This document shows, one piece after another, positions 1 to 63,721 of a DNA stretch of 64,000 nt. Source of the stretch: Candidatus Rifleibacteriota bacterium (GTDB lineage Bacteria > Muiribacteriota > Ozemobacteria > Ozemobacterales > Ozemobacteraceae); NCBI GenBank assembly GCA_017417215.1, contig JAFPZP010000010.1, forward strand, positions 10,155 through 74,154, written 5' to 3'. Position 1 is the first letter of the stretch; each line of letters starts with the position of its first letter. Made by a program: the position numbers and the translations under genes. Under the pieces are notes generated by a model. That model searched no databases and was not told the origin of the DNA. It was given only the letters and a program-made list of their open reading frames with translations.

Positions 1-77
1 TACCAACTACAATAAAAACTCTTCTCTTTTAAGAGAAGCAATTAAAAGTCCGAAGACAGTCTCAACTCTCAATTAAT

Positions 78-205: not shown

Positions 206-369
206 CTCACCACCAACCACTCACCACGCCTCTGATTGCTACGCAATCAGCCCCCTCAGTCTTTGGCTATTCGCTCTCTGTAGCCAATTAGCACAATCTG
301 TCTGCTTTTTTATTGGGTTTAGGGGGTATTTGATTTCAGGGTGGGGTATTTGCTAGAATATCTGATGTT

Positions 370-2058: not shown

Positions 2059-2086
2059 CTTAAAAGCTTAAGGTGTACTAATATTA

Positions 2087-3658
2087 TTGTTTCAAGCTTG
2101 GAGGTTTCCCTTGTCTAATAATTTACTTAAAACTGAACTTGTTGAATATTTAAAAGAAGTTGAACTCGATGAAGAGCGTGTTTTGGCCAATCTGGTTTTT
2201 GACCCGGGTGTAATCGGGCAGCAGTTATTGGAAAATCATTTTACCATTGAAGATTTTAAAGGCCCAGAAGCCAATCGTGTTCTTTTGGGAACAATATTAG
2301 AAATTATTGAAGATGAAGAAACCTTAAGTCTTCCAAATTTAGTTTCCAGACTGATTAACCAGAATCAGGGAAAAAGAACTAAGCTTGAAGTCGTAGGCGG
2401 CGAAAGCAGAGTTAAGGATTTGATGCTGAATCCATTTTCAAAACCTGGTGTTAAGATGATGGAAGATATCGAACCTCTTATTGAGCAGATTCGAGATAGG
2501 AATATCAGATACGATTCTCATAAGACATTTATTCAATATTCCGAAAAAATAATAGATAATGATAAAGAAGTTTTTGAAGTATTGAGTGAAGGTATACAGT
2601 CGCTTCGTTCCATATTTTTGCAGGGCAGTGCCGGGTATATCAGAGGAATAGACTCTCATATCGATGAAATGCAGGAACTAATCGCAGACAGGCGATATCG
2701 AAAGCAAAGTTATCTAGGACTGAATACTAATTTCCCGATTCTTATGGAAAAACTAAATGGTTTTCAGAAAGAATTTTATCTGATAACCGGTGGGGTAGGG
2801 ATGGGAAAATCTACCTTTGCAACTCAGTTGGCTTGGGATTTAGCAACTATGAATCCAGAACTAACTGTAATTTATTTTAGTCTTGATCTTAATCGTATAG
2901 ATGCTACCTCAAAAATTGTTTCTCAGTGTGGTGAATTACCTATTGATTACGTTAAGAATCCTTATTCTATTCGTGACGATTTGGAAGAACGCCGTTCAGA
3001 AGCTTTGAAAAAAGTTGCTTCTATGAGCAAGAGGTTCATTCTTATTGATGAATCTTCCGGTAGACTTTCCATTGATGACGTAAAAAAATATGTTAAACGA
3101 ACCCGTCTCGAAAGGGGAGGGGAAGTTGCTGTTGTAATAGACCCGCTATATAAGATTCTGATAAGAAATCAACATCATATTGGTTTCAATGAAAAATGTA
3201 ACGTGTTGGCTTCTGAATTAAAGAGTCTGGCGGCAGTAGAGGGTGTTACTGTTATAGCTACGGCAGGTTTGCCAAAAGCTATTAGTAGTCGCAGACCAGT
3301 AAAAGAAGATTTGGAAGAAATAACGGGTTTGTTATATGACCCATATGCTATTTTCTTCTTGTATTGCGATTATTTGAATAACTTTGATACTCCTTTCCTT
3401 GAATGGGAATGGGGTAAAGAAGATTCTTTCATGATTCCGATAACTGAAGCTTTTGTTGCTAAAAATAAAATGGGAACTTCTAATTCGACTATTTTTTATC
3501 GATATTTCGAAGCTTTTTCAAAATTTAAAGAATGTGCTCCGCAAGAAGTTGAAAATTATTCTGCAATGATAGACAATCTTGAACGATTTAAAGAAGTTCA
3601 GGCTAATCAGAATTCAAAACAGCAGAATAGTGGTTCTCACCGTCAGGAGGAATTTTGA
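2087..3658 (+). CDS. dnaB: DnaB-family hexameric helicase, divergent: DnaB-like N-terminal domain plus RecA-like C-terminal domain
   Basis: TTG start at 2087. Walker A is GGVGMGKSTFATQLA. Segments align to DnaB motifs: FSLDL (vs SLEM), VVIDPLYKI (vs IDYLQL), SSRRPVKEDLEE (vs KRPmlSDLRES) and YDPYAIFFLY (vs DADvvmFlyR). The N-terminus (VLANLVFDPGVIGQQLLENHFTIEDFKGPEANRVLLGTILEI) is DnaB-N-like. Confidence 0.55.
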   Translation: MFQAWRFPLSNNLLKTELVEYLKEVELDEERVLANLVFDPGVIGQQLLENHFTIEDFKGPEANRVLLGTILEIIEDEETLSLPNLVSRLINQNQGKRTKLEVVGGESRVKDLMLNPFSKPGVKMMEDIEPLIEQIRDRNIRYDSHKTFIQYSEKIIDNDKEVFEVLSEGIQSLRSIFLQGSAGYIRGIDSHIDEMQELIADRRYRKQSYLGLNTNFPILMEKLNGFQKEFYLITGGVGMGKSTFATQLAWDLATMNPELTVIYFSLDLNRIDATSKIVSQCGELPIDYVKNPYSIRDDLEERRSEALKKVASMSKRFILIDESSGRLSIDDVKKYVKRTRLERGGEVAVVIDPLYKILIRNQHHIGFNEKCNVLASELKSLAAVEGVTVIATAGLPKAISSRRPVKEDLEEITGLLYDPYAIFFLYCDYLNNFDTPFLEWEWGKEDSFMIPITEAFVAKNKMGTSNSTIFYRYFEAFSKFKECAPQEVENYSAMIDNLERFKEVQANQNSKQQNSGSHRQEEF

Positions 3659-5547
3659 TGGAAGGAGAAGTTCTTGACCTATATAATAAGGCAGTTGCCG
3701 CTTACGACAGAGGGTCTTACGAAATAGCTATTCAGGAATATGAAAAGGCCTTAGCGCTTGAACCTGAAAATGTTGATATTTTAGTTAATCTTGGTGCTGT
3801 GTGTCTGCAAAAACGAAAAGTTGATCAGGCGATAAATTATTTCAGCAGTGCTTTAACTATAGATCCCAATAATAGTATGGCTTTGTATGACATAGGAAAG
3901 GCTTATATGTATAAGCAGGATTACAGACTTGCTTATATGGCTTTTCAGCAGGCGTCTGGTCTTTTGCCTGAAGATCTGGAAATTAAGCAGCTCATGGTTT
4001 CTTGTTTGAGATCTTTGGGAAAATATAAAGATGCCGTTGCTATAATGCTGGATAATGTGGAAAAGTTTTCTGGCAATGTTGATGCTTTGATGGAGCTTGG
4101 CGGTGATTTAAAAATGCTTGCCAGATATGAAGAAGCTTTGGAAATATACAGAAAGGCTTCTGATGCTGCTTGCAATTCCATAGAACCATTAAAAGGTATT
4201 TATGACTGTCAGATTCACTTAGGACATAAAGATAAGGCTCAAACTACTTTGAAAAGAGCGATGATGATTGAGCCTTCCAATCAGGAAGTTATTCTAAGGC
4301 TAACAGATCTTTACCTTGAAGAAAATAAGGTTCAGGAAGCTGTAGAACTTATTACCAAAGGTCTTGAAACTATAGAAAGCCCGATTCAGCTTAGAGAAAA
4401 GTATAATGAAATGGTGAGAAAGCTTCCCATTTTGAAAAAGAAGACTTCTCCAAGTAAGTTTGTTCCTGGGCAAAGTTCTCATGAAACAGAAGTTTTTGAT
4501 ATTCTTGATAAGCTTTATGATGGGAAAATGCCTATCGAATCTGCTTTAAATGAACTTGGCATACTTCATAAAAGAGAGCCTCAAGATATTCTTATTGCAG
4601 ATGAATACGCTAATTTGCTTTATCAGACAAGGCAGTTTGAAAAATCTGCGGAAGTTTATTCTGAATTATATCTTGCCAGACCGAACTTCCCTGTTCATAG
4701 AGTTGATTTAGCCAAGTCTCAAGCAATGAAAGGCGATGTGGAAGCTGCTAGAACAACATTGACAGACGCTATCAGAGATCTGGGTCATCAGGCAGAGTTG
4801 GATTTGGCGTTAGTTGAATTGGATTTGCTGGAAAGAGACTTTGAAAAAGCTGGTGCCCGACTTGATATGATAGTTAAGGAATTTCCAGATGATGTTCATG
4901 CTTTATTTCTTTATGCCTATACTGCTTTCAGAATGGATAAAGTTGATATAGCTGAAAAGACTTATGAAAAGCTTTTGGAAATTGCTAGCGGTGATGAAGA
5001 AGTGGCGATGTGGTATTCTCGCTTGGCTATTATGATTGGAAAACCAGAAAAGGCTCTTAAGGTATGGGACACTTTTAATGACGGAATAGATAGCTTTGTT
5101 GAAATAATGTGCCGTATTGAACTGAATATAGCTATGGGTGATACCAGTCAGATAATGAAGCTGCTTTGCAAAATAGGTGATTATAAGCCAAGATTTATAG
5201 AAGACCATTTAATGTTTGGCAAGGCATTTTTCTATGCAGAAGAATTCCCTTCTGCTCAGAGAGAATTTGATACTGTTTTAAGGGTTGAACCTCAGAATGC
5301 AGAAGCATTAGGAATGACGGCTGTTACTTCCTTAATGAGGAATAAAACAGCTCAATTTGCAAGCGTTTGGCAGAGAGCTATTTATTTAGATTCTTTATAT
5401 GCTATTTTGCCAATGATGATATTAAAAAGCTGTATGAAGTTCATTCCAAAAGAAAAACTAAGGAATGAAACCAAAAAGCTTATGAATATTGCTTCGCTTT
5501 CGGCTCCTGATTATTCAAGACTGAAAAGATTATATGATTCTTTGTAG
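3655..5547 (+). CDS. TPR-repeat protein
   Basis: There are multiple 34-aa tetratricopeptide-like repeats (e.g. YNKAVAAYDRGSYEIAIQEYEKALALEPEN, ALYDIGKAYMYKQDYRLAYMAFQQA). It overlaps the dnaB-like stop by 4 nt. The likely ATG is at 3658. Confidence 0.6.
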   Translation: MMEGEVLDLYNKAVAAYDRGSYEIAIQEYEKALALEPENVDILVNLGAVCLQKRKVDQAINYFSSALTIDPNNSMALYDIGKAYMYKQDYRLAYMAFQQASGLLPEDLEIKQLMVSCLRSLGKYKDAVAIMLDNVEKFSGNVDALMELGGDLKMLARYEEALEIYRKASDAACNSIEPLKGIYDCQIHLGHKDKAQTTLKRAMMIEPSNQEVILRLTDLYLEENKVQEAVELITKGLETIESPIQLREKYNEMVRKLPILKKKTSPSKFVPGQSSHETEVFDILDKLYDGKMPIESALNELGILHKREPQDILIADEYANLLYQTRQFEKSAEVYSELYLARPNFPVHRVDLAKSQAMKGDVEAARTTLTDAIRDLGHQAELDLALVELDLLERDFEKAGARLDMIVKEFPDDVHALFLYAYTAFRMDKVDIAEKTYEKLLEIASGDEEVAMWYSRLAIMIGKPEKALKVWDTFNDGIDSFVEIMCRIELNIAMGDTSQIMKLLCKIGDYKPRFIEDHLMFGKAFFYAEEFPSAQREFDTVLRVEPQNAEALGMTAVTSLMRNKTAQFASVWQRAIYLDSLYAILPMMILKSCMKFIPKEKLRNETKKLMNIASLSAPDYSRLKRLYDSL

Positions 5548-47990: not shown

Positions 47991-48845
47991 TTAATCATTC
48001 AAGGGTTTACCACAGTATTTGCAGTATTTGGCGTCAGCGTCATGCCCTTCTTTACAGCAAAATGGGCAAGTTTGAGTGGTTATTTTATTTTTTTGCGGAA
48101 AAATCATTTCTGAGGTTACTATTCCTGTTGGAATAGCTATGATTCCATAGCCTAAAAGCATAATAAAGAAGGAAAAAGCTTGCCCCATCGGTGTCTTGGG
48201 CGATATGTCTCCATAACCAACTGTAGTAAGTGTAACAACAGCCCAATAAACGCTAACAGGGATACTGGTAAAACCATTTTCAGCACCTTCTATAACATAC
48301 ATTACAGAGCCTAAGCAAAATACAATTATGAATACATAAAATGTGAATACAGCTATTCTTTTGATGCTTCGCTTCAGAGAATAGAGCATATTCTCAACTT
48401 CGTGTGTGAAATGAACTAATTTGAATAGCCTGAAAACTCGTATGAATCTCAATATTCTGACTACTGATAGATATTGAAAATCTTGAAGACTAGGAATAAT
48501 ACTAAAATAATTTGGCAAAATAGATATTAAATCTATTATTCCAAAAAAGCTTATAGCATAATGCAGGGGCTTAGCTACACAATATAGTCTCAAAAAATAC
48601 TCTATTGTGAAAAGTATAGTGATTGTCCATTCTACATAATTAAAAAGAGTTCCATATGCAAGACGGTATTTTTCTACGCTGTCTAAAGAAGTAACGAAAA
48701 CACTTATAAAAATACAGATTAATAAAGCAACATCGAAGGCTTTTCCCCAAAAAGTATCTGCTTCAAAAATAATTTCGTGAATCTTTTTTTGTAATGGGGA
48801 AAGAGAAGGAGTGTGTCTGATTTCAGAATAGTTTAGCTTTATCAT
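47991..48845 (-). CDS. Voltage-gated-like K+ channel (Ion_trans) with a C-terminal zinc-ribbon tail
   Basis: The K+ selectivity filter TVGYGD, an S4-like RILRFIRVFRLFKL, and the C-terminus CPFCCKEGHDADAKYCKYCGKPL. Confidence 0.7.
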   Translation of the reverse strand: MIKLNYSEIRHTPSLSPLQKKIHEIIFEADTFWGKAFDVALLICIFISVFVTSLDSVEKYRLAYGTLFNYVEWTITILFTIEYFLRLYCVAKPLHYAISFFGIIDLISILPNYFSIIPSLQDFQYLSVVRILRFIRVFRLFKLVHFTHEVENMLYSLKRSIKRIAVFTFYVFIIVFCLGSVMYVIEGAENGFTSIPVSVYWAVVTLTTVGYGDISPKTPMGQAFSFFIMLLGYGIIAIPTGIVTSEMIFPQKNKITTQTCPFCCKEGHDADAKYCKYCGKPLND

Positions 48846-49190: not shown

Positions 49191-52100
49191 ATGAGTGTAA
49201 CTGTTGCAACTGAAACAGCTTCGCAGACAAATTCTTCTGCAGCTCCATCTACAACTGCCGCAGCGGCTCCTGCTGCAAACAATACTGCTAATTCTTTACC
49301 GCAGCAATACCAGACCAAAAAGGCTATGTGGGAACGAAAGCTTCTAGACTTAGGTTTGAGAAACCAGCTTATCAATATGCGCAAGTCTCGCACGCTGATT
49401 CCTCTTATAACTAATACAATTAACGAACTAGAAGACGCCTTGGCTGATGGTGAAGAATTCTTAATAACTGCAAAACCGGAAAAAACAGTATTTTCAGAAG
49501 AAGAATTCAAATTTGATGATTTATTAAAAACAGAAATCAAAGATGAAGATCTACAAAAGGAATTCGCAAAACACCATTTGTTTTCATCATTAACAGAAGG
49601 CGAATTAAAGAAAGCAATAAAAGAAGTCTACCGCTCAGCCAAAAGTTCTATCGAAGAAAACGGCGCCAATACTCTTTATTTGGCTCTTGGTCTTTTAAAA
49701 TGGTTTGAATCTAAGGGGAATAATCCGCCTGCCCGTTATGCACCGATTATTCTTTACCCAATAGATATAATCAGAAAATCAGCAGCTCAAGGCTACACAA
49801 TCAGTCTTAGAGACGATGACCCACAGCTCAACATAACAATGCTAGAAAAGCTGAAACAGGATTTCAGAATTGAAGTTGAAGGTTTGGATCCTCTTCCTCT
49901 AGATGAACACGGGCTAGACACACGTAAAATTTTTGAGACAATACGTGAATATGTTAAACCTCAGGAAAACTGGGAAGTTATAGAAGTTGCTGCAGTAGGT
50001 ATATTCTCCTTTACTCAGTTTGTAATGTGGAACGACCTGACCAACCGTTCTGACGACCTAATTAAGAATAAAATAGTCAAGAGTTTGTTGGAAGGCAAAC
50101 TCACCTGGGAAGCTGAAGGCATGGAAACTGGCGACCACGTCTGCGAAGATGATGTTTTTATGGCTATGCCAACAGACGCTTCTCAGCTTTTTGCTGTCAG
50201 AAGTGCTTGCGAAAACAAGTCTTTCGTTCTTCACGGTCCTCCAGGAACAGGTAAATCTCAGACTATTACTTCTTTGATTGCAAATGCCTTAGGGCAGAAT
50301 AAAACCGTTTTATTTGTAGCAGAAAAGATGGCTGCTCTAGAAGTAGTTCAAAAACGTCTTGCTTCTATTGGCTTAGACCCATTCTGCTTAGAACTTCATT
50401 CAAATAAATCTCGCAAAAAAGCTGTTTTGGAAAAATTACAGCAGACTACAGAATTCCGCAGACCTAAAGCAAGCGATGATTATAAGCAGAAAGCAGAAGA
50501 AATATCCAAACTTCGCAAAGAACTTAATGTTTATTCCGAAGACCTTCATAAGAAGCAAAGCTATGGTTTAAGCATATATGAGCTTATAAATGAATATGAA
50601 CTAAATTCAGACTTTCCCGATATTCCTGCTTTTTCTCAAGAAGCTTTAGGGAATGTTACTAAGGAACTACTCGACAAGCAGAATCAGATTATTGAATCCT
50701 TAATTACTTCTGCTCGTGCTGTTGGTCACCCTGCTGAACATGCTCTTTCAAGAGTAGGTTGTAAAGAATACAACCAGAGTCTTAAAGACGACCTTAATTC
50801 TAAGGCTACAAAATACTTGAATAATCTAGAAAAGCTAAAAGAATTAGCTGACGAATTCAAGAATAAAGCAGAACTAACAAATTTAGATGACGACATTGAA
50901 TGGACAAAACTTTTAACAACTGCTGAACAGGTTGCCAAATGGTCATACTTACCAAAAGCCTGGGCTGACCACAAAGGCATGAATATTTGCATGACTGAAA
51001 TAGCCGAAATGGCTGACCATTTCGCAAAGTCAAAAGAATTGCGCACTGAACTTGAAAAGAACTGGAAGCCAGAATTTTTCGATCAGAATGGTAGCGAACT
51101 TTCAGCTACTCATACTCAGAAGAGTAATTCCTGGTTTATTCCTAGATTCTTCGGGTTATGGAGCTTGAAAAGCAAAGTTTCATCTTTTGCAAAATCTTCT
51201 GTTAATGCAGATACTTTAGGCAAAGATCTTTCAGACCTTTCTTTATACCAGTCTGAAAAAGCTAAGGCTGATGAATTATTTAAAAAATACACTGCTGAAC
51301 TTGATTCTCTTTATGATGGTGAAAACACCGATTGGAACAAGGTTAAAACTTATGCTGTAGATGCAAAAGAAAGCTGCGCCAAACTTAACGAACTTTATAA
51401 TGATGAAGAACTTCGAATAAAGCTTTGTAGCAATAAAGAACTGACTCAAAAAGCTCAGGAAGTTCAAAAGGCAAACGAAACAAGACTTTCTTCCCAGAAA
51501 GAATTTGCTGAAGTTGCTATGCCAAAGCCTGTTAATCAGTTTAATACGCCTGTTCTGGAAGACATAGAAATGTGTAAGAATATCAACAAGCACGTTGAAG
51601 GTATAAAAGAATGGACTCTTTGGAATAAAACCTCAAGCGAAGCAGAAGAAGCCGGTTTGGCTGTCCTTGTCGAAGCCTATCAAAAGGGTATGGATCACGA
51701 CGATATAAAGGGAGCTTATTTAAAATCTATCAGTAAAGGCCTTGCTGCTCGTGCTATAGATGCTTCTAGCACTCTTAATAACTTCTCTGGGAAGGTATTT
51801 GACCAGAAAGTAGACAAATTCATAACTCTTGATAAACAGGTCAGCGCTCTTGGAAACCGTGAAATAGTCTATCGTTTGGCTGCAAAACTTCCTGACTTTA
51901 CTAGAGAGGCTGCTCAAAGCTCTGAACTAGGCATTTTACAAAGAGCTATCAAGAGCGGGGGTAGGGGAACCTCATTAAGAAAGCTTTTTGGGCAGATTCC
52001 TAATATTCTTCCAAGACTCTGTCCCTGTATGCTCATGAGCCCTATATCTGTTGCTCAATATATCGACCCCAATAAATCACCTTTCGATCTGGTAATCTTC

Positions 52101-53963
52101 GACGAAGCTTCACAGCTTACAACCAGCAAAGCAGTTGGTGTTTTGGCTCGTGGTCAGAATGCAGTAATCGTTGGTGACCCCAAGCAGATGCCGCCGACTT
52201 CATTCTTCTCTTCTGCTGCAGTTGATGAAGATAACCTTGATTTGGAAGATATGGAAAGTATTCTCGACGACTGCTTAGCCTTGAATATGCCTCAAACTCA
52301 TTTGTTATGGCACTACAGAAGTAAACACGAAAGCTTGATAGCTTTCAGTAACCATAACTTCTACGAAAGCAAGCTTTTCACTTTCCCATCAGTAGACGAC
52401 AGAGAATCTAAGGTTAATTTCGTTCCCGTAAAAGGCACTTTTGACCACGGTTCTGGCAAGCGCTACAACAAAGAGGAAGCCGAAGCTGTTGTTAAAGAAC
52501 TGATTCGCAGAAGCAAAGACCCCAAACTTTCTAAATACAGTGTTGGTGTTGTCACTTTCAACATTCCTCAGCAGAACCTCATCGACGACCTCTTTACTGA
52601 AGCCTGTAAGACAGACTTAGAACTTGAAAGCTGGGCTTATAAGAAAGAAGATCCGTTATTCATCAAGAATCTTGAAAATGTTCAAGGTGATGAACGCGAT
52701 GTAATCATATTCTCAGTCGGTTACGGACCAGACAAAGAAGGCAAAGTCTCTATGAACTTCGGTCCGTTGAACAAAGACGGCGGTTGGCGCAGACTTAACG
52801 TTGCTGTTTCCCGTTCTAAACGCGAAATGATGGTATTCAGCTCTATGCTGCCGGAACACATAGACACCAACAAGACCAAAGCAGAAGGCGTTATCGCTCT
52901 TAGAAACTTCCTTGATTTTGCTAGGAATCCGAAAGGCTATTCTTTCTCTGCTGAAAAGAATGCTGCTCAAAACGGCATTATAAAGAGTCTTAGCAAAATT
53001 TTGAAAGAACAGGGTTATTCTGTAGATACCAACATTGGTAATTCTGAATTCAAGATTGATTTAGGCGTAATCGACCCGAGAAATGAAAACAGATATCTTC
53101 TCGGTATTTTGCTCGACGGACCTGTTTATGCAGAATGCAAGACCACCAGAGACCGTGAACTTTCACAGGCAAGTGTTCTTAGAGGCTTAGGCTGGAACAT
53201 CATTAGAATGTGGAGTATGGATTGGTGGGAAAACAAGGATATTGAAGTTGACAAGCTGTTAGATAAACTAGACAAGCTTAAAAACGACAAATCCATAGAA
53301 CCAGAAAAGAAAGAAGAACCAAAAGCAGAGCTGAAACCTGTTGAATACGAAGAACCAGGCACTGCTCCTGCCTCTGACTCTGGAATATTTGCCAAACCTT
53401 ATACTGCAACTCAATTACCTCAAACTTCATTGTCATCAGATGATTTTATGGCTAGAAAGAACGCAGCAGAGCTCAAAAAGCGTGCTATGAAAGTAATTGA
53501 AACAGAAGCTCCTATCACAGAAGGTTTGCTTACCAAACGTCTGATTCAAAGCTATGGAATAACAAGAGTTGGAACACGTGTTCAGGCATATTTAGACGAA
53601 TTCTATGCAAATCTTTCTTTAAAAACCACAACTCAGTCTGACGGTCAAAAGATTTACTGGAATCCAAAGCAGAATCCTGATGATTACAGCGATTGCAGAG
53701 CAGGCAAAACAGATGCTGACAAACGTGATTCTAAGGATATTCCAATAATAGAAGCCTCTAATGCTGTTTACAAAATCGTTTCAGATCAGATTGCACTCTC
53801 TTCTGAAGATTTAGCCAAGGAAGCGGCAAAACAGCTTGGCTTCTCACGTCTCGGCACAAATCTTACAACTCTTATGGATGCCGCCGTAGAAATGAACAAA
53901 GCCGCCGGCTACCTGACCGTCGCTGAAAACGGCAACATCACCCTGAACAAAACAGAAAACTAA
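49191..53963 (+). CDS. Large DUF4011 - SF1 (Upf1/DNA2-like, COG1112) helicase - Vsr/PD-(D/E)xK-like endonuclease - DUF3320 protein; a candidate defence helicase
   Basis: The N-terminus WERKLLDLGLRNQLINMRKS is DUF4011-like. Walker A is LHGPPGTGKSQTITSLI. VIVGDPKQMPPTSFF, VTFNIPQQ and VQGDERDVIIFSVGY are SF1 motifs. C-terminal GNSEFKIDLGVIDPRNENRYLLGILLDGPVYAECKTTRDRELSQASVLRGLGWNIIRMWSMDWW is a Vsr-like REase segment, followed by a DUF3320-like tail. Confidence 0.75.
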   Translation: MSVTVATETASQTNSSAAPSTTAAAAPAANNTANSLPQQYQTKKAMWERKLLDLGLRNQLINMRKSRTLIPLITNTINELEDALADGEEFLITAKPEKTVFSEEEFKFDDLLKTEIKDEDLQKEFAKHHLFSSLTEGELKKAIKEVYRSAKSSIEENGANTLYLALGLLKWFESKGNNPPARYAPIILYPIDIIRKSAAQGYTISLRDDDPQLNITMLEKLKQDFRIEVEGLDPLPLDEHGLDTRKIFETIREYVKPQENWEVIEVAAVGIFSFTQFVMWNDLTNRSDDLIKNKIVKSLLEGKLTWEAEGMETGDHVCEDDVFMAMPTDASQLFAVRSACENKSFVLHGPPGTGKSQTITSLIANALGQNKTVLFVAEKMAALEVVQKRLASIGLDPFCLELHSNKSRKKAVLEKLQQTTEFRRPKASDDYKQKAEEISKLRKELNVYSEDLHKKQSYGLSIYELINEYELNSDFPDIPAFSQEALGNVTKELLDKQNQIIESLITSARAVGHPAEHALSRVGCKEYNQSLKDDLNSKATKYLNNLEKLKELADEFKNKAELTNLDDDIEWTKLLTTAEQVAKWSYLPKAWADHKGMNICMTEIAEMADHFAKSKELRTELEKNWKPEFFDQNGSELSATHTQKSNSWFIPRFFGLWSLKSKVSSFAKSSVNADTLGKDLSDLSLYQSEKAKADELFKKYTAELDSLYDGENTDWNKVKTYAVDAKESCAKLNELYNDEELRIKLCSNKELTQKAQEVQKANETRLSSQKEFAEVAMPKPVNQFNTPVLEDIEMCKNINKHVEGIKEWTLWNKTSSEAEEAGLAVLVEAYQKGMDHDDIKGAYLKSISKGLAARAIDASSTLNNFSGKVFDQKVDKFITLDKQVSALGNREIVYRLAAKLPDFTREAAQSSELGILQRAIKSGGRGTSLRKLFGQIPNILPRLCPCMLMSPISVAQYIDPNKSPFDLVIFDEASQLTTSKAVGVLARGQNAVIVGDPKQMPPTSFFSSAAVDEDNLDLEDMESILDDCLALNMPQTHLLWHYRSKHESLIAFSNHNFYESKLFTFPSVDDRESKVNFVPVKGTFDHGSGKRYNKEEAEAVVKELIRRSKDPKLSKYSVGVVTFNIPQQNLIDDLFTEACKTDLELESWAYKKEDPLFIKNLENVQGDERDVIIFSVGYGPDKEGKVSMNFGPLNKDGGWRRLNVAVSRSKREMMVFSSMLPEHIDTNKTKAEGVIALRNFLDFARNPKGYSFSAEKNAAQNGIIKSLSKILKEQGYSVDTNIGNSEFKIDLGVIDPRNENRYLLGILLDGPVYAECKTTRDRELSQASVLRGLGWNIIRMWSMDWWENKDIEVDKLLDKLDKLKNDKSIEPEKKEEPKAELKPVEYEEPGTAPASDSGIFAKPYTATQLPQTSLSSDDFMARKNAAELKKRAMKVIETEAPITEGLLTKRLIQSYGITRVGTRVQAYLDEFYANLSLKTTTQSDGQKIYWNPKQNPDDYSDCRAGKTDADKRDSKDIPIIEASNAVYKIVSDQIALSSEDLAKEAAKQLGFSRLGTNLTTLMDAAVEMNKAAGYLTVAENGNITLNKTEN

Positions 53964-56428: not shown

Positions 56429-58633
56429 ATGAGAAAACTACGAAAAAAACATACTGTTTTACTATTTATATTATTAATCCTTTCCTGCTTGTTACTGATT
56501 GCAGTCGATGAAGCCTTTGCTCGTGCCGGCGGTGGTGGTGGCGGAGGCGGCGGAGGTGGCGGCGGAGGCGGCGGTCACGGTGGCCGCGGCGGTAAAGGCG
56601 AAACACTAATATTGGATCTTTTTGTTAGCAGTTGTAAAACACGTGGTATTGCAACAACTCTGTTGCTTTTTTCCCCTTTTATATTGTTTCATTTTACAAG
56701 TTGTTTTGCAGCTTCATTTTATTATAAAGAAAAGGCTTTATCCAGAGTTTTGTTCTTTCTAGGAGCCTTCTTTTTTGGTGGCATTTTTTGTTTTTCGTGT
56801 TTTGGAACTATTTTTTTAGTTTTACCTATTGAATGTGTGACATTAAAAACCATTATAGAGTCAAGAATCAAATATGGTCGTTTTATTACTTGTAACGAAG
56901 AACAATCTAAAAAATTCTCCACAGATAATACACCAAAAGAAAAATTAGCTTTAATGAAAATAAAAAAGAATAATCCTTCTTTTTCATTAACAGATTTTAA
57001 AACAAGAATAAAAAAAGCTTTTAAAATTATTCAGGATTCTTGGATGGATCAGGATTTATCAAATGCGGAAATGTTCTTAGCTGATGGAACTTATGAACAG
57101 TTTCAAATACAAATAAACGGAATGATTAAGGACAATACCGTAGATATAATGAAAGAGCTGGAAATCCAAAATGTTTTTGCAATAAAAGCAGAAAACTCTT
57201 TTGATTATGATTCTATATATGTAGCAATTCAAGCAAAAGCCATTAATTATTTAATGAATAAAAGAACAAAAGCTATCATAAAAGGAGATTCTACAGAACC
57301 TGAATTATTTGCAGAAGTTTGGTGCTTCATGCGAAGAAAAGGGGCTAAAGAATTAAACAGCAAAGGCTTAATAGAAGGATACTGTCCTAATTGCGGAACA
57401 CATATAGAAGGAGCAAGATTAATACAGTGCCCTTCTTGCAATGCTTTGCTAAAATCTGGTCAGCATGACTGGATTCTTGCCGGCATTTATCAGTCTTCTG
57501 AATGGAGAGACACTCATAATTCACATATTCCTGGATTGAAAAATTTATATAAATATGACCCTTCATTTAACATACAGAATATAGAAGATAAACTCTCAGC
57601 CATTTTCTGGCGTATGATTGAAGCTGTTAGAAACCAGAGTGCCGATTCTATTCTTAAAATATCATCAGATAAATTTGCCCAGGATTTTATAAAATCATCT
57701 TTCAAACACAAAGAAATATCAAGATATAATAAAGCTGGAACAGATTCTATTGAAATAATAGGTATTTCAGAAGAAGACGGCAAACATGTACTCTTAGGAC
57801 AAGTTATATGGAATAGTTGTATAACACGAAATGGCAAAGAAGAAACTATTCATCAAAAATCTGTCTTTATTCTTAAAAGAGATATTAATACCAAAACAGA
57901 TACAAGAAAATGCTTCTGTAGTTCACATTGTATAAATTGCGGAGCAGCAGAAACTTTTAACAGCAGTAATTACTGCGAATACTGCAATACTGCAGTTAAT
58001 GACGATAAAAAAGATTGGATTCTTACAGATATTTGTAATATATCTGATCTTTTAATAGGAAAATACCTAAATCATGCTAATATTTATGATAAAAAGGAAG
58101 TTGTTGTTAATCAGGAAAAGACTGTAGCCAAAGCTAATCAAATTATTGCAGAGCCTACAGATTACAATGATTCTACTGAAGAAGAATATGAAGACGATTC
58201 TCTGGATATCAATTTCTGGAGCCTATTAGGCAAATACTCAGTAAAAGATCTGCTTAGAATGTGCATAGCTGTAATGCTTGCAGATGGAGTAATAGACAAA
58301 AACGAATTACAAATAATCAGAAAAATCTGTGAAATAGGCTATATCCCCGAAGAAGTTCTTCAAATGAATATAAGAGAAATGCAAAACGCAGATAATCCTA
58401 TTGAACATGTTTTAGAAACATCAGCAATAGGATTAGATAAAGATTTGCTCAAATTATTAATTAAAATAGCCGTCTCAGATGGAGATGTAGCAAAATCTGA
58501 AGTTGATATAATCTTTAAGATGTCAGAAAAGATGCATGTTTCAAGAAATGAAACCATTGATTCCATAAATAATATTTATGAGAAAAGATGGAAAAAGAAA
58601 CTAGATCAGTCTATTTTTTCCCAAAGGTTTTGA
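56429..58633 (+). CDS. Membrane protein: signal/TM, (Gly)n tract, two TM helices, two Tim44-like domains each carrying an inserted CxxC...CxxC zinc ribbon, and a C-terminal TerB-like domain
   Basis: ARAGGGGGGGGGGGGGGGGHGGRGG. Repeat 1: FAEVWCFMRR...CPNCG...CPSCN...HDWILAGI. Repeat 2: VFILKRD...CINCG...CEYCN...KDWILTDI. The C-terminus LLRMCIAVMLADGVIDKNELQIIRKICEIG ... LLIKIAVSDGDVAKSEVDIIFKMSEKM is TerB-like. Confidence 0.5.
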   Translation: MRKLRKKHTVLLFILLILSCLLLIAVDEAFARAGGGGGGGGGGGGGGGGHGGRGGKGETLILDLFVSSCKTRGIATTLLLFSPFILFHFTSCFAASFYYKEKALSRVLFFLGAFFFGGIFCFSCFGTIFLVLPIECVTLKTIIESRIKYGRFITCNEEQSKKFSTDNTPKEKLALMKIKKNNPSFSLTDFKTRIKKAFKIIQDSWMDQDLSNAEMFLADGTYEQFQIQINGMIKDNTVDIMKELEIQNVFAIKAENSFDYDSIYVAIQAKAINYLMNKRTKAIIKGDSTEPELFAEVWCFMRRKGAKELNSKGLIEGYCPNCGTHIEGARLIQCPSCNALLKSGQHDWILAGIYQSSEWRDTHNSHIPGLKNLYKYDPSFNIQNIEDKLSAIFWRMIEAVRNQSADSILKISSDKFAQDFIKSSFKHKEISRYNKAGTDSIEIIGISEEDGKHVLLGQVIWNSCITRNGKEETIHQKSVFILKRDINTKTDTRKCFCSSHCINCGAAETFNSSNYCEYCNTAVNDDKKDWILTDICNISDLLIGKYLNHANIYDKKEVVVNQEKTVAKANQIIAEPTDYNDSTEEEYEDDSLDINFWSLLGKYSVKDLLRMCIAVMLADGVIDKNELQIIRKICEIGYIPEEVLQMNIREMQNADNPIEHVLETSAIGLDKDLLKLLIKIAVSDGDVAKSEVDIIFKMSEKMHVSRNETIDSINNIYEKRWKKKLDQSIFSQRF

Positions 58634-60269
58634 GAATTTCAGTTCTTAGTGTACCAGCACCTGAATTATGAATTAGGAATAAATGCTGGTTCTTGTTAAT
58701 GCAGGCTCTTACCTGGAAAAGATACAGGTGGCCTGCGTAGCTGGTCATAACAACTGCAACATCGCATCTTCCAACTATTTCGTTGGTTCTTGCCTGGCTT
58801 ATGGTGTGGAAACCTTCATACCATTCATAATCAGAATCTTCAACACCGGCTTCTTTTAATGTTGGCCAGTATTGTTCACGGCTACCACCGCCAAAAATAA
58901 CTATTCTTTTGCCCTTCATCAATCCTTCAACAGAATTAGCATTTTCATCGGGAAGAGCATTTAATTGTCTGAGTTTTGCTGTTAATTCCTGATTTTCATT
59001 ATCAAGTTTTCTGAATTCACTGCGCAGCAAAGCATCTTCTTCAAGAGTTTCTTTGAGTTCTTTGTTGGCGGCATTAACTTTAGCTTCTGCAGCAGAAAGC
59101 TGTTTCCTGACTTCTGCTGGGTCGAGTTTTGATAACTTAACTTTTATTTCTTCGTTTTCGATTTTTACTGCTCTGGCTTCGGCTTTAGCTTCATCTCTTT
59201 CTATGATAAGCTTGTTAATTTGTTCTTTAAGCTTATCTGCATCAGAGCGCATTTCACCTATCTTTTCCTGAAGTTCTTCCTTGGTTAATTCAAAATCTTT
59301 TAAGGAAATATTAGGTCTTGTTTGGTTGAAATGCTTTAAAACGAAGTGGTGATGCGTATAAACTTCGAGAATATCTTTTAAATAATCTTCGTAGGCTTCC
59401 TGTTTATCTTCGTTTGGTGGAAATTCTGTTTGAACGTCTTTTATTAAAAGCTTCAAAAGTTTTTTCCCGTCTCTGTAAGCTTTGTCGACATCATCATAAA
59501 AAGTAGGTCTTACAAGATTAAGATTTCTTGTTTTATTGAATATTTCATCAAGATACTTGAAATTATCTGCATCTAAAAGCTTCCAGAATCTGATAACATC
59601 AGCAGGTTTTATTTCGTATCGAAGTTCACTTAAAACCTTGTCTAATGCTTCTTTCCTTTGGTCTTCGCTGTTAGGTATATCTTCGTTTTCATTCTGCTTA
59701 CAGATAGTATCTATCTGTTTTACAAGCTTTTTAAAAGCTGGAAACTCATCGCTATCAAGGAATAAAGTAGCCAAAAAACTTTTTCTTTTTAGGAAATGTC
59801 TAGAGAAAACTCTTTTTTCTCCGCCGATTTCAACATCATATTTTGAACTAATTTTGCCACCGACATTATATTTTTTCTTTTTCTTGGCTGCTTCTTCTAA
59901 GGCTTCAGCTTCACGTGCCTTGCGGATTTTTGCCAGTTTTTCTTCTATCATTTCACTGACAAGACGGGCTTGAACAGGTCCGCTCAGCATAATATCCAAT
60001 AAATCGCCGATAAATAAAGCGAAAGCTCGACCATTTTTGTCGTAAGCTTCGGCAAATTTTTTATGTATATTCCAATAACGGTTTTCTTCTTCTTCTATTT
60101 TGCTTTCTGGTTTTGCTTTTGTTTCTTTCTTTTTCATCAAGTCACCAGCAAGTTGTGTGACCATATTTTTCCCTTTTGATGATGGGGAAAAACCAGCTAG
60201 TTTTTCTAATTCATCTAAGTTTTTCTTTTGACTTCTGGAAAGATTAAGACCGTCTAATGGGTTTAACAT
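58611..60269 (-). CDS. Coiled-coil protein with a C-terminal DUF2325-like Rossmann-like domain
   Basis: A long Glu/Lys heptad region (residues ~330-440) is followed by a C-terminal domain with GKRIVIFGGG and CDVAVVMTSYAGH motifs (quoted in full in the findings). The DUF2325 call is from memory of that family's hvivGG / aDlVivftdyvsH pattern. Confidence 0.4.
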   Translation of the reverse strand: MLNPLDGLNLSRSQKKNLDELEKLAGFSPSSKGKNMVTQLAGDLMKKKETKAKPESKIEEEENRYWNIHKKFAEAYDKNGRAFALFIGDLLDIMLSGPVQARLVSEMIEEKLAKIRKAREAEALEEAAKKKKKYNVGGKISSKYDVEIGGEKRVFSRHFLKRKSFLATLFLDSDEFPAFKKLVKQIDTICKQNENEDIPNSEDQRKEALDKVLSELRYEIKPADVIRFWKLLDADNFKYLDEIFNKTRNLNLVRPTFYDDVDKAYRDGKKLLKLLIKDVQTEFPPNEDKQEAYEDYLKDILEVYTHHHFVLKHFNQTRPNISLKDFELTKEELQEKIGEMRSDADKLKEQINKLIIERDEAKAEARAVKIENEEIKVKLSKLDPAEVRKQLSAAEAKVNAANKELKETLEEDALLRSEFRKLDNENQELTAKLRQLNALPDENANSVEGLMKGKRIVIFGGGSREQYWPTLKEAGVEDSDYEWYEGFHTISQARTNEIVGRCDVAVVMTSYAGHLYLFQVRACINKNQHLFLIHNSGAGTLRTEILKTFGKK

Positions 60270-60305: not shown

Positions 60306-61748
60306 TTAAGCTATTTGATTGCCGCCGCGCTTGCGAGCAAGTTTTAATGCTTTTTCAGCCATTTTTAATAAATCGCCTGGTTTAGTTGTAGCTCCTGAGC
60401 TACTTGCCAAACCAAAGCTTCCAGTTAGCATAATGGTTTGATTGCTAGCTCTTACCTTAGTCTGACTAAGTGATTGTTTTAATTTATTGGCTGCAACTAA
60501 GGCTCCGGTATATGGTGTTTCTGGAAGAAGCATAGCAAAACTGTCTGCGCCGAATCTGGCAACCAAGTCATGTATTCTTGTTGCAGAGCGGAACATTTTT
60601 CCAACTTCTTTCAAAAGTTTGTTACCAGTGTTTTCGCCGTAGGTTTCGTTAACTGTTGAAAAATGGTCTAGATCCATGATGATTAATGAAATATCTTTTC
60701 TGTAGCGCTGTGCTCTGCAAAATTCTTCTGTAAGTCTTTGCATAAAAAGATTTTCATTGGCTATGCCTGTAATTGGGTCTGTTGTTGCAGAATAATACAT
60801 TTTTGTTCTATTTATGGCTACAGAAGCTTGAGCAGCAAATATCTTCATCATCTGATCTGTTCTTGAAGTCATAATATTGCCAGAATGCTTGGTATCAACA
60901 TAAAGTACACCAATATTGCTGGACATTTCTTTTAATGGAACTATGGCAACAGATAGTATTCCAACGTCTTCTGGGCTTTTAAACTTGGGATTTGGATTCC
61001 TGAAGTTATGGGAAGGCCCTATCAAAGATTCACCTGTGTCGAAACATTTGCTTACCAAAAATGAAGTAGCTTGCATATCTTCGGTAACTTCACTGTTATC
61101 GAAATTAATCATAGAAACTGTTTCTAATCTGCCAAGTTCTTCGTTGAAAAGCATCATTAATGCTCTTTCACCGCCGGTTACATTTATTGCCATTTCCAAA
61201 GTGAAGTCAAGAAGTCTTGGAAAGCTTTCAATTGAATTTAATGCATAACTGACTTCTAAAACTGCTGAAAGCTCTTTGATACGGGTAACCATTTCGCCTT
61301 CTGTAGCAGATAATGCAGGGTAATACTGACGCGGAATCTTTGAACGTATTGTTGCAAAACTTTTACGAACAAAGTTTTCGTTACTATTTAAGAAAAATGG
61401 GAAAAATCTGTCGCTGTCAGGGCTGACAGAAGCTTCGTTACCTTCAAGTTGCAGAGAGACAAAGACATCGTCAGACATTTCTATAAAACAACCAGGATTA
61501 ATTGTAGCAATAAAACCTGGCTGGATTTTTTCGCCATTCACGATTGTACCATATGGGCTTTGTAAATCCTGTAATGTCAGGTAACCGTCTGAATTATAGC
61601 GAAGCTGAATCTGTCGACGAGAAATGCCCATCTTATTTAACTGAATATCGCAGTCGTTACCGCTGCCTATTACAACACCGTCACCATGCAAACTGGGGCT
61701 TCCTTCGTAAAGAATCTGCCCATTTTTATCTGTAATTAAAACTTTCAT
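60306..61748 (-). CDS. FHA domain - GAF domain - degenerate GGDEF domain protein (A-site GADSF, I-site RIHD intact); a likely c-di-GMP-binding, non-catalytic signalling protein
   Basis: The N-terminus VVIGSGNDCDIQLNKMGISRRQIQLRYNSDGYLTLQDLQSPYGTIVNGEKI is FHA. The middle region, with TGGERALMML, is GAF-like. The C-terminal TTDPITGIANENLF...IIMDLDHFSTVNETYG...RIHDLVARFGADSFAMLLP is GGDEF with GGDEF replaced by GADSF. Confidence 0.7.
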   Translation of the reverse strand: MKVLITDKNGQILYEGSPSLHGDGVVIGSGNDCDIQLNKMGISRRQIQLRYNSDGYLTLQDLQSPYGTIVNGEKIQPGFIATINPGCFIEMSDDVFVSLQLEGNEASVSPDSDRFFPFFLNSNENFVRKSFATIRSKIPRQYYPALSATEGEMVTRIKELSAVLEVSYALNSIESFPRLLDFTLEMAINVTGGERALMMLFNEELGRLETVSMINFDNSEVTEDMQATSFLVSKCFDTGESLIGPSHNFRNPNPKFKSPEDVGILSVAIVPLKEMSSNIGVLYVDTKHSGNIMTSRTDQMMKIFAAQASVAINRTKMYYSATTDPITGIANENLFMQRLTEEFCRAQRYRKDISLIIMDLDHFSTVNETYGENTGNKLLKEVGKMFRSATRIHDLVARFGADSFAMLLPETPYTGALVAANKLKQSLSQTKVRASNQTIMLTGSFGLASSSGATTKPGDLLKMAEKALKLARKRGGNQIA

Positions 61749-62125
61749 TTCTTAACCTTATATCCACATTTGCAAACTTTTTTTGCCCCCAATACACGAC
61801 CACATTCAGGACAATATTTGCTTACGTGGCTGGCAATCTTTTTCTCTGCGGCTTTTAGCTTTCGCTTTTCTTCTAGCTTTTTGGCCATTTCAAGGAAAGC
61901 CAGTCCTTCTTCTTCACTAACAGCTTTATTTTTAGCAGCACCACTAATCATTTCTTCATATTTTTCAGAATAATCAGGGTTTTCTTCAAGGTAGGCTTTA
62001 AAAGCTTTTTGTGGGTCTTTGTGCTTTTTGTACAAATGTTCATAAGAATAAATAGGTTCTTCTTCGAGCTTTTCTTCGCATATTGCAATGAATTTTTCTT
62101 CCCAAATATCATAAGGGTCTTGCAT
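61745..62125 (-). CDS. Small acidic protein with a C-terminal CPxCG...CKCG zinc ribbon; first gene of the FHA-GGDEF operon
   Basis: 126 aa with a Glu/Lys-rich body. The C-terminus is YCPECGRVLGAKKVCKCGYKV. Its stop overlaps the downstream gene start by 4 nt. Confidence 0.4.
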   Translation of the reverse strand: MQDPYDIWEEKFIAICEEKLEEEPIYSYEHLYKKHKDPQKAFKAYLEENPDYSEKYEEMISGAAKNKAVSEEEGLAFLEMAKKLEEKRKLKAAEKKIASHVSKYCPECGRVLGAKKVCKCGYKVKK

Positions 62126-62157
62126 TTATTGTCACCTGCCTTTGCTACTAATGAGGA

Positions 62158-62186
62158 TTATACCTTAATAATTATTAATTATCAAT
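62158..62186 (-). promoter_or_regulatory. Candidate sigma70-type promoter for the minus-strand zinc-ribbon/FHA-GGDEF/DUF2325 operon
   Basis: On the minus strand: TTGATA, a 17-nt spacer, then TATAAT. The RBS and ATG at 62125 lie downstream. Confidence 0.4.
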
Positions 62187-62215: not shown

Positions 62216-62244
62216 TTGACAGTATGGCGATATTTATGTACAAT
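62216..62244 (+). promoter_or_regulatory. Candidate consensus sigma70 promoter for the C11 peptidase gene
   Basis: TTGACA at 62216-62221, a 17-nt spacer (gtatggcgatatttatg), then TACAAT at 62239-62244. It lies about 45 nt upstream of the AGGAG RBS of the 62291 gene. Confidence 0.45.
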
Positions 62245-62290: not shown

Positions 62291-63721
62291 ATGAAAAAGA
62301 CTTCTATATTGGCTGTAGCAGCTCTGATAGTTGGTTTATGCTCCTCTTCATATGCAGCATCTAATGCTCAGAAAAACGTAAAAAAGAATGCTGAAAAAGA
62401 ATGGACATTGGCAGTATTCCTTAATGCTGACAACAATCTCGACAGATTTGGTGTAGCAGACCAGGAAGAAATGAGCCGTGTAGGTTCTAATGAATATCTT
62501 AATATTGTTTCTTTAATTGACCGTGAAAACGGACCAGCACAAATAAACTACATTGAAAAAGACAATATTAAAAAGCTGAAAGACTTAGGCGAACTCGATA
62601 TGGGTGACTATAAAGAGTTTGTTAAATTTGTAAAATTCGTAAAAGAAAACTATCCTGCAAAACACTATTGTTTTTCTTTCTGGAACCATGGTTCAGGCTG
62701 GAAAGATAAAAACGATGCCGCTTCTGTTTTAAAGGGTATTTCTTACGACGATTCAAGCCACAACCATATTTCAACCAACGATTTAACAGTAGCTTTAGCA
62801 GAAGCCAACAAGATTCTCGGTAAAAAAATCGATATGCTCTGCTTTGACGCCTGCTTGATGCAAATGGTTGAAGTTGCATATGCAGCAAAAGATCATGTTG
62901 ATTATATGGTCGGTTCTGAAGAAACAGAACCAGGCAAAGGCGCTCCTTATGATGATATTCTTAAGACTTTGAAAAAAGGCATGAGCCCAAAAGAATTTGC
63001 AATCAGTTGGGTTAATGCTTTCGGTGATTCTTATAACGGTGGCAGCCAGGGAAAAGCAAAATCAACTCAATCTGCTCTTGAAATGAGCAAGTTGCCTCAA
63101 TTTATTGATGCAATCAATGGTTTTGCAAAAGTAGGCATGTCTAAAGATTATTCAAGATTCTTCAGACAAATGAATGTCTATACTCAGAAATATGCTTATC
63201 CAGACAACATGGATTTACTTCATTTTGTTGAATTAATGACTGAACCAACAGGTCTCAACAGTTTGGAAGAATTAAAGAAGCAGAATGTTGATGAAGCTAT
63301 GAAGACAGCCATAAAGAAGCTTCAAACAGCTGGCAAGCAGTTGATTATTGCTAACAGATTCACAACTCCAGAAGCTCAGGAATCAAAAGGTATTGCTATA
63401 TTCTTCCCAACTTCATATTATTGCCCATGGCTCTATCAAGACCTTGCTTTTGCAAAGGATACTCTTTGGGACGATATGCTTGAAGCTCAAGGCGGATATG
63501 CAGTAATGAACAGAATTTCTGAAGATGTTAAGAAGGGTGAACTTGAATCTTTGGCTAAGTTAGTAAAAGACGCCAAGAAAGACCCCAAAAACAAAGTTTA
63601 CCGCAGAGTTCTTGTTCAGCTTAACTATATTGCTGATAATGAACGCGCTGTTCCTGCTAAGTCTAAGGCAGAATTTGAAAATCTACGTGGTAAATTGAAA
63701 TCAGCCATAGCTACTAAGTAA
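62291..63721 (+). CDS. Secreted clostripain-like cysteine peptidase (MEROPS family C11)
   Basis: Signal peptide. The catalytic His is in FWNHGSGW and the catalytic Cys in CFDACLMQMVEV, with C11-typical spacing. Length is 476 aa. Confidence 0.65.
   Translation: MKKTSILAVAALIVGLCSSSYAASNAQKNVKKNAEKEWTLAVFLNADNNLDRFGVADQEEMSRVGSNEYLNIVSLIDRENGPAQINYIEKDNIKKLKDLGELDMGDYKEFVKFVKFVKENYPAKHYCFSFWNHGSGWKDKNDAASVLKGISYDDSSHNHISTNDLTVALAEANKILGKKIDMLCFDACLMQMVEVAYAAKDHVDYMVGSEETEPGKGAPYDDILKTLKKGMSPKEFAISWVNAFGDSYNGGSQGKAKSTQSALEMSKLPQFIDAINGFAKVGMSKDYSRFFRQMNVYTQKYAYPDNMDLLHFVELMTEPTGLNSLEELKKQNVDEAMKTAIKKLQTAGKQLIIANRFTTPEAQESKGIAIFFPTSYYCPWLYQDLAFAKDTLWDDMLEAQGGYAVMNRISEDVKKGELESLAKLVKDAKKDPKNKVYRRVLVQLNYIADNERAVPAKSKAEFENLRGKLKSAIATK

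Follow-up and report, generated by a model that had tools for sequence, protein, structure and literature searches.

DUF2325 (PF10087) is a widespread protein domain for which no function is described in the literature. The sole DUF2325 protein with a published phenotype is Cj1384c of Campylobacter jejuni, a cysteine-rich, stand-alone protein of 104 aa encoded next to katA; it is reported to be regulated by PerR and to be induced 352-fold by light that generates reactive oxygen species (ROS), making it the most strongly light/ROS-induced gene of that organism. A redox role has been proposed from its seven cysteines, and the protein could not be purified. Here, we examine a 552-aa DUF2325 protein encoded in a 64,000-nt stretch of a Candidatus Rifleibacteriota bacterium (contig JAFPZP010000010.1; from here on, the window), in which the domain is joined to a coiled coil and to an orphan helical domain, and whose gene directly follows one for an FHA-GAF-GGDEF protein (from here on, the partner). 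What is new here is this combination of domains, DUF2325 itself being a known if uncharacterized family, and the literature holds no function for the architecture either, as the first-pass annotation of the window had stated. Judging from sequence comparisons, we tentatively favor, at somewhat less than even confidence, the view that the DUF2325 protein works in the cytoplasm as a partner dedicated to the FHA-GAF-GGDEF protein and that the two make up a signaling module of two genes, present throughout the phylum Riflebacteria and restricted to it.

In PelD, a GAF domain is combined with an inactive GGDEF domain that retains the RxxD inhibitory site (I-site); the protein binds cyclic di-GMP (c-di-GMP) and activates a partner protein, is anchored in the membrane and controls a polysaccharide synthase. 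The partner encoded in the window, which we liken to PelD, has a GAF domain, a degenerate GGDEF motif (GADSF) and an intact RxxD I-site. The Riflebacteria protein differs from PelD in being soluble, in having an FHA-like domain at its N terminus and in that deeper-branching orthologues retain GGDEF. In Streptomyces, RsiG, which pairs with the sigma factor WhiG, is a coiled-coil anti-sigma factor armed by c-di-GMP. The ancestral Riflebacteria gene order is comparable, as it also brings together a coiled-coil protein, c-di-GMP signaling and a sigma factor in one unit, but the paired E(x)3S(x)2R(x)3Q(x)3D motifs of RsiG were absent from all 33 family members tested, homology is not detectable, and the Riflebacteria sigma factor is of the extracytoplasmic function (ECF) type with a zinc-binding anti-sigma (ZAS) factor of its own. 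Our literature search turned up a single FHA-GGDEF protein that has been studied structurally, namely, DgcB of Bdellovibrio bacteriovorus, a diguanylate cyclase with an I-site, whose FHA cleft has the consensus residues S75, R76 and T96 and in which R61, K72 and R76 contact a phosphothreonine of the protein's own N-terminal tail (PMC6733907). Like DgcB, the partner combines an FHA domain at its N terminus with an I-site-bearing GGDEF domain; unlike DgcB, it has no N-terminal tail, in most species is devoid of the canonical Arg and Asn, and carries a GAF domain between FHA and GGDEF.

One argument for a functional pair comes from gene order. Comparing one genome per GTDB species, we found the full architecture of the DUF2325 protein at 47 loci in 46 species-representative assemblies, with one locus per assembly save in one case. 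Nearly all of these loci are labeled Riflebacteria or Ozemobacteraceae, and the few metagenome-assembled genomes (MAGs) labeled otherwise show the same synteny; as far as these sequences go, the whole architecture is limited to the uncultured phylum Riflebacteria. Open reading frames (ORFs) were called in all loci and compared with the genes of the window and with the neighbors found in its relatives. Among the 42 loci that offer 1.5 kb or more of upstream flank, 41 carry an FHA-GAF-GGDEF gene immediately upstream of the DUF2325 gene; at one extreme the two genes overlap by 4 nt, and at the other they lie a few tens of nucleotides apart. This constancy argues that the link is not a coincidence and, since the DUF2325 gene nearly always comes directly after the partner gene, that the two proteins probably work together. 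The invariant core of the locus is this two-gene pair. The profile of distribution and conserved neighbors that the first-pass annotation had suggested as a check was thus obtained.

Three loci labeled Avigastranaerophilus (L009), Methylomirabilis (L025) and Erysipelotrichia (L051) carry the module with typical synteny and probably represent mis-binned or mislabeled MAGs. The most divergent orthologue, 37% identical and found in a groundwater MAG (L047, positions 499-2102), is split into ORFs of 409 and 132 aa, reflecting either a frameshift or pseudogene, or else an assembly error.

The position of the ORF had been given exactly by the first-pass annotation, and the C-terminal peptide quoted there corresponds to residues ~453 to 548. 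The window has a G+C content of ~35%. A ribosome-binding site (RBS; AGGAAG) lies 8 nt 5′ of the ATG. Database searches returned 124 homologues, either full length or fragments of the same architecture, at 44 to 100% identity; among the 120 listed, all those with a named source come from Riflebacteria or Ozemobacteraceae, and one deposited hypothetical protein, from a Riflebacteria MAG, is identical to that of the window. Compared with the closest orthologue (L007), the ratio of nonsynonymous to synonymous substitution rates (dN/dS) is 0.028 for the whole protein and 0.005 for its C-terminal domain, pointing to strong purifying selection. Given the 124 homologues and the low dN/dS, we regard this as a real gene and not a chance ORF. 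No signal peptide or transmembrane segment was noticed on reading the sequence, and the protein is presumably cytoplasmic.

Its anatomy was derived from an alignment of 33 sequences, a periodicity analysis and two AlphaFold2 models, for which residues 1 to 335 and 440 to 552 were modeled separately. The sole meaningful Pfam match is PF10087 (E = 3.2e-6, 27.6 bits), in which residues 456 to 545 align with profile positions 2 to 91 of 94. The resemblance to Cj1384c and its family lies in the C-terminal 93 residues, the differences from Cj1384c being the fusion to a coiled coil and a helical domain and the want of a cysteine cluster. The score of the window protein stays under the 33.6-bit gathering score, also when the C-terminal domain is scanned alone (29.9 bits). 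Despite this, we assign the domain to DUF2325, since all 22 orthologous C-terminal domains that were scanned match the profile (best E = 5.2e-10) and since a precomputed PF10087 annotation exists for the majority of the 120 homologues listed; the C-terminal fragment of one orthologue also bears the NCBI label "DUF2325 domain-containing protein."

AlphaFold2 predicts four beta-alpha units for the 440-552 construct with good scores (predicted local distance difference test [pLDDT], 88.4; predicted template modeling score, 0.81). Invariant residues occupy the loops after all four strands, namely, F459-G460-G461 after the first, Y484, G486 and T489 after the second, T509, Y511, A512, G513 and H514 after the third, and H534, S536, G537 and G539 after the fourth. 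Further invariant arginines are R494, R501 and R521, and strand 2 starts with the invariant D480 and has a nearly invariant E482 in its middle. Altogether, 35 of the 113 C-terminal positions are invariant across orthologues that are 58 to 91% identical in this domain, including 2 His, 4 Arg, 3 Thr, 1 Ser and 4 Gly-containing loops after strands, and by its dN/dS the domain is under stronger constraint than any other part of the protein. The DUF2325 assignment, the G-rich first strand, the acidic strand and the conserved His pointed out in the first-pass annotation are all borne out by these data, as are the ~110-residue coiled coil and the helical N-terminal domain described below. Its proposal of a small Rossmann-like nucleotide-binding domain holds only as far as a generic three-layer alpha/beta fold. 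A classical Rossmann dinucleotide-binding domain was rejected, the model having four strands instead of six, the loop FGGGSR in place of GxGxxG and acidic residues at the start and in the middle of strand 2 instead of its end; nor did Foldseek return a significant NAD(P)-Rossmann match in the PDB.

What Foldseek did return from the PDB were weak, mixed alpha/beta matches, the best being flavodoxin-like (E = 9e-4; TM score, 0.51) and others including SulA, receiver domains, aspartate transcarbamoylase and the EIIA-Man component of the phosphotransferase system; no SLOG or TIR structure was among the 50 matches listed, all of which are weak. No related sequence was found in the PDB, and a fold search of BFVD gave nothing significant. 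Word-based searches for intermediates in an index of 5.8 billion proteins, run with the C-terminal domain and then with a 22-sequence profile, recovered fragments of the same family only and no bridge to canonical DUF2325. No match came from a tblastn search of plasmids with the C-terminal domain or from a PHROGs search. By sequence, this is a divergent and isolated DUF2325 subfamily.

The other end of the protein is isolated in its relationships as well: the profile of residues 1 to 335, compared with 1.84 billion cluster representatives, found nine proteins, all of them members or fragments of the family, and neither sequence nor fold searches found a relative of the helical domain in the PDB. 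The AlphaFold2 model of this construct has an all-alpha N-terminal part (mean pLDDT, 75.9), and conserved features of the domain are a GDLLDI helix, a small IGGEKR beta-hairpin, a basic LKRK patch, FYEDLDKAYR and YTHHHFV, to which the nearly invariant Cys190 can be added. Helical domain, coiled coil and DUF2325 always occur together, and the helical domain is never found with another partner domain; as judged by these profile searches, it is without relatives outside the family. A divergent HD or hemerythrin-like metal domain was considered and rejected, as nothing beyond the HHH motif speaks for it and the profile search retrieved only the domain's own family. In the N-terminal tail, there is a short conserved motif, LDELEKLAGF, with G26 invariant, and a search of the alignment for a Thr or Ser that might serve as an FHA ligand found none conserved across the phylum. 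Between the two end domains, the heptad period of 3.5 or its 2.33 harmonic is dominant over residues ~321 to 453. The heptad part consists of two segments of ~55 residues (325 to 382 and 385 to 438) with an invariant P384-x-E386-V387 between them. Segment B has several conserved polar residues (E425 is invariant; R416, D423, N426 and Q427 are nearly so), and both globular end domains are better conserved than the coil.

In the partner, Pfam recognizes GGDEF (6e-35), FHA (4e-13) and GAF (4.5e-05) domains, with GAF_2 (2.7e-06) just below the cut-off. The I-site, five residues upstream of the GGDEF position, is invariant as R[IV][HN]D in all 42 aligned partners, that of the window included. The GGDEF motif has fared differently: it reads GADSF in the window and GADTF, GPDSF or GAETF in much of the Rifleibacterium-like clade, and is intact only in the deeper Ozemobacter-like clade. 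The position that we take to be equivalent to the guanine-binding D344 of PleD is Asn in the window and Asp in the Ozemobacter-like clade. The window partner, in which GG[DE]EF is replaced by GADSF, does not look like an active diguanylate cyclase. FHA domains contact phosphothreonine through Gly-Arg, Ser-x-x-His and Asn-Gly, as in DgcB and Rad53, and the window protein has IGSG for the expected GR, SRRQ for SxxH and SPYGT for NG. Across orthologues, GR is kept in 3 of 41, the Arg being Ser or Thr elsewhere; NG has Tyr or Phe in place of its Asn, and the Ser and His of the remaining motif vary. The domain also scores above threshold for the phospho-independent FHA family Yop-YscD_cpl. The FHA domain of the window partner does not look like a phosphothreonine-binding one, since the fold is detected but its contact residues are replaced.

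On these sequence features and the analogy to PelD, the partner in the lineage of the window looks like a c-di-GMP receptor of the PelD type, with an FHA-like domain that would serve in protein docking, and not like a phosphothreonine-gated cyclase. Because deeper-branching orthologues keep GGDEF, an active cyclase under product inhibition was probably the starting point of the family. Within one phylum, its GGDEF domain gives the impression of a cyclase that is becoming a receptor for c-di-GMP and nothing else. The earlier placement of the DUF2325 gene downstream of a c-di-GMP/phosphothreonine sensor is thus half right: the adjacency and the invariant RxxD stand, whereas the FHA domain without its Arg and Asn and the GADSF motif leave no clear sensor.

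Further downstream, conservation is looser. An ECF sigma gene starts less than 500 nt after the DUF2325 gene in 30 of 45 loci, mostly at 13 to 74 nt, and ~3 kb downstream in two more. The product of the gene after it has HxxxCxxC in its N-terminal part as well as a hydrophobic segment, by which we identify this protein as a canonical membrane ZAS anti-sigma factor; a thioredoxin gene and glgB usually follow. The ECF pair is not adjacent in the clade of the window, which comprises rumen and gut MAGs (L006-L009, L029), nor in loci L026-L028, L032, L036 and L038, and no ECF homologue was found anywhere in the 64-kb window. The DUF2325 gene is the last gene of its operon in the window, as had been noted; since the ECF pair follows in most relatives and has been lost in this clade, we consider that arrangement a derived local state. 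At the other end of the module, most loci have a sigma-70-like element, GGCTGCAAA-N16/17-GGTATACT, 50 to 70 nt 5′ of the partner gene, and the partner and DUF2325 genes are probably cotranscribed, as suggested by their arrangement. That the module is a mere part of an ECF autoregulon was rejected, as an ECF-type promoter was sought and this conserved sigma-70-like element was found instead.

How might such a module work? We picture the DUF2325 protein as an adaptor that forms dimers and is coupled to a partner able to bind c-di-GMP. The coiled coil would form a homodimer, with a pair of DUF2325 heads and the orphan helical domain at opposite ends; alternatively, instead of a parallel dimer, the coil might form an intramolecular hairpin around P384. 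The partner would bind c-di-GMP at its I-site in the manner of PelD-type degenerate GGDEF receptors and dock on the DUF2325 protein, possibly via its phospho-independent FHA-like domain, such that occupancy of the I-site would alter the complex of the two. The crevice of the DUF2325 domain may hold a small phosphate-bearing ligand or a peptide. The state of the complex would then be relayed to a downstream target, in most Riflebacteria plausibly the neighboring ECF sigma and its membrane ZAS anti-sigma factor; in the clade of the window, the target would have to lie elsewhere, since the ECF pair is gone there. The confidence voiced at the outset applies to the general statement of a dedicated two-gene module, and each of these mechanistic details is rated lower. 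The first-pass annotation had inferred from gene order that the DUF2325 protein is the regulated output of the partner, but it could equally be the sensor.

Several points weigh against this proposal. A regular-expression scan for the PilZ (RxxxR...[DN]xSxxG) and RsiG-type c-di-GMP motifs gave no strict match to either in 33 members of the DUF2325 protein family. At one locus (L042), the gene stands without an adjacent partner and has unrelated sugar-metabolism genes there instead. The ECF pair cannot be an obligatory target, as the sigma factor has its own anti-sigma and is not beside the module in about one-third of species. And ligand binding by DUF2325 is conjecture, since the family is without a characterized member and the fold matches are generic. 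Accepting every step and more, the pair would be a hitherto undescribed c-di-GMP output module, in which a decayed FHA-GAF-GGDEF protein serves as a pure I-site receptor and as the switch for the coiled-coil dimer; a nucleotide or another phosphorylated ligand would be bound by the DUF2325 heads of the latter, through which an ECF/ZAS response (envelope or redox) would be controlled; in this specific form, the idea is unlikely.

The same neighborhood can be read differently. If the adjacent ECF sigma were what the DUF2325 protein regulates directly, as an anti-anti-sigma or sigma-binding adaptor comparable to the c-di-GMP-responsive coiled-coil anti-sigma factors, one would understand why the sigma gene starts so shortly after it in most loci, with a gap too short for an independent ECF promoter, and why a protein with a c-di-GMP site is encoded in the same operon. 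Yet a canonical membrane ZAS anti-sigma already serves this sigma factor, the module is kept under strong constraint at loci without the ECF pair, the window has no ECF homologue at all, and the family has no RsiG-type motif, so we think such a role improbable. Another reading follows Cj1384c and its expression next to katA: DUF2325, maybe together with the helical domain and its HHH motif and Cys190, would sense a redox ligand or metal and control the partner as well as the ECF, ZAS and thioredoxin genes. The HxxxCxxC anti-sigma and thioredoxin genes that follow the module in most loci, the constraint on DUF2325, the invariant His pair and the nearly invariant Cys190 would all suit an oxidative-stress sensor. 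The redox proposal for Cj1384c, however, rests on seven cysteines, for which the Riflebacteria domain has no counterpart cluster; the window and several other clades have lost the thioredoxin and ECF genes next to the module, and neighborhood support past the partner gene is weak. This reading, too, strikes us as doubtful.

Constraint is also what would recommend DUF2325 as an enzyme, for instance, a phosphotransferase or phosphohydrolase using H514 or H534, with the rest of the protein targeting or regulating it: 35 of 113 positions are invariant, many of them on the post-strand loops where alpha/beta enzymes bear their active sites, and the dN/dS of the domain is 0.005. But at ~93 residues with only four strands, with no enzyme family found by sequence or fold and no catalysis reported for any DUF2325 protein, we hold this to be distinctly unlikely. 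Least probable of all, and very unlikely in our judgment, is that the long coiled coil belongs to a structural or cytoskeletal protein (SMC-like, flagellar or a division scaffold) that neighbors a signaling gene by chance. It would agree with the apparently single-copy occurrence in 46 species-representative assemblies and with weak, chance-level matches to a conjugative-element protein, a type III secretion tip protein and JetC. Against it stand a coil of just ~110 residues, end domains that are better conserved than that coil and the strict adjacency to the FHA-GAF-GGDEF gene. Neither Pfam, NCBIfam, PADLOC, PHROGs nor the PDB sequences gave a significant SMC, flagellar or cytoskeletal match (the chance-level coiled-coil matches in Pfam, NCBIfam and PADLOC have E values of 0.005 or weaker), so the first-pass reading survives the comparison with characterized structural proteins. 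A role in a defense system was rejected, the PADLOC matches of the DUF2325 protein being at chance level. Among these readings, we continue to favor the dedicated two-gene module. The features of the locus are compiled in the table.

Table. Features of the DUF2325 locus, with positions counted from the first nucleotide of the window
Feature	Position	Strand	Basis
DUF2325 protein gene, 552 aa: helical domain, coiled coil and DUF2325	58611..60269	-	ORF, ATG start, RBS, homologues, dN/dS
N-terminal tail, residues 1-55	60105..60269	-	pLDDT 45-58; mean conservation 0.47, lowest of the protein
Orphan domain, residues 56-320, predicted all-alpha	59310..60104	-	AlphaFold2; profile search; no PDB match
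HHH motif, H306-H307-H308 within YTHHHFV; H307 and H308 invariant	59346..59354	-	33-sequence alignment
Coiled-coil segment A, residues 325-382, variable sequence	59124..59297	-	Heptad periodicity, a/d positions mostly hydrophobic
Coiled-coil break DPAEV; P384, E386 and V387 invariant	59109..59123	-	33-sequence alignment
Coiled-coil segment B, residues 388-438	58956..59108	-	33-sequence alignment, heptad periodicity
Conserved linker, residues 439-455 (P440-D441-E442)	58905..58955	-	33-sequence alignment
DUF2325 domain, residues 456-548, predicted (beta-alpha)x4	58626..58904	-	Pfam, AlphaFold2, invariant columns, dN/dS 0.005
Partner gene, 480 aa, FHA-GAF-GGDEF, 36 nt upstream of the DUF2325 protein gene	60306..61748	-	Pfam; synteny 41/42
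RIHD I-site followed by degenerate GADSF motif	60537..60578	-	Alignment of 42 sequences
FHA-like domain of the partner, without canonical Arg and Asn for phosphothreonine	61479..61676	-	Pfam; alignment
Clade-specific 126-aa gene, C-terminal CxxC...CxC zinc ribbon, first gene of the local operon	61745..62125	-	ORF; locus comparison
Promoter TTGATA-17-TATAAT, sigma-70-like, 11/12 matches, upstream of the three-gene operon	62157..62185	-	Promoter scan
Convergent 734-aa gene, Tim44-like domain, zinc ribbons, two TerB stretches	56429-58633	+	Pfam

Locally, the operon of the window has a further first gene, encoding a 126-aa zinc-ribbon protein with an acidic helical N terminus and no family match. 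It overlaps the partner gene by 4 nt and is present only in the clade of the window (L006-L009, L029). Across many Riflebacteria (L010-L052), the GGCTGCAAA-N16/17-GGTATACT element upstream of the partner gene is strikingly conserved and is related to the TTGATA-17-TATAAT promoter of the window. Divergently from the operon, a clostripain-family (Peptidase_C11) gene with a signal peptide-like N terminus occupies positions 62291-63721 of the plus strand and has a strong promoter-like site of its own at 62216-62244. On the other side, both in the window and in its closest relative (L007), the convergent Tim44-TerB gene overlaps the stop codon of the DUF2325 gene by 23 nt. It sits where relatives have the ECF sigma, anti-sigma and thioredoxin genes, and in the N terminus of its 734-aa product, ~16 glycines in a row come after a hydrophobic segment.

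Upstream of the module in other Riflebacteria, we observed genes for HAMP-SpoIIE phosphatases of the PP2C type (L004, positions 1-5221). In L010, L015-L017, L020, L022, L025 and L046, the frame just upstream ends in a ...DDLTLVV-type tail, which we read as a PP2C C terminus, and in some loci LexA lies between the PP2C-like frame and the module. These neighbors hint at Ser/Thr phospho-signaling nearby, though the FHA domain of the partner looks degenerate. Elsewhere in the window, a gene at 49191-53963 (plus strand) encodes a 1,590-aa protein with DUF4011, an Upf1-like helicase, an MTES_1575 nuclease and DUF3320, and the entire length of which matches the PADLOC candidate defense model PDC-S37 (score, 1198). 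This gene and one for an ion channel (47991-48845) are located between dxs and glgB. In L004, dxs and glgB are adjacent, which suggests that the pair between them is an insertion.

The weight of these observations is limited by the fact that the phylum is uncultured and that architectures joining a conserved hypothetical protein to a coiled coil are common, making the result useful but not surprising. Within these bounds, the module illustrates how, inside one phylum, a GGDEF protein that was probably an active cyclase may have become a receptor alone. The DUF2325 domain is found here in a strictly conserved two-gene module with a protein that has a c-di-GMP site, and this provides hypotheses that can be tested in vitro, namely, a complex of the two proteins and a ligand at the conserved loops. 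Should the c-di-GMP output module prove true, it would give the widespread DUF2325 domain its first biochemical role.

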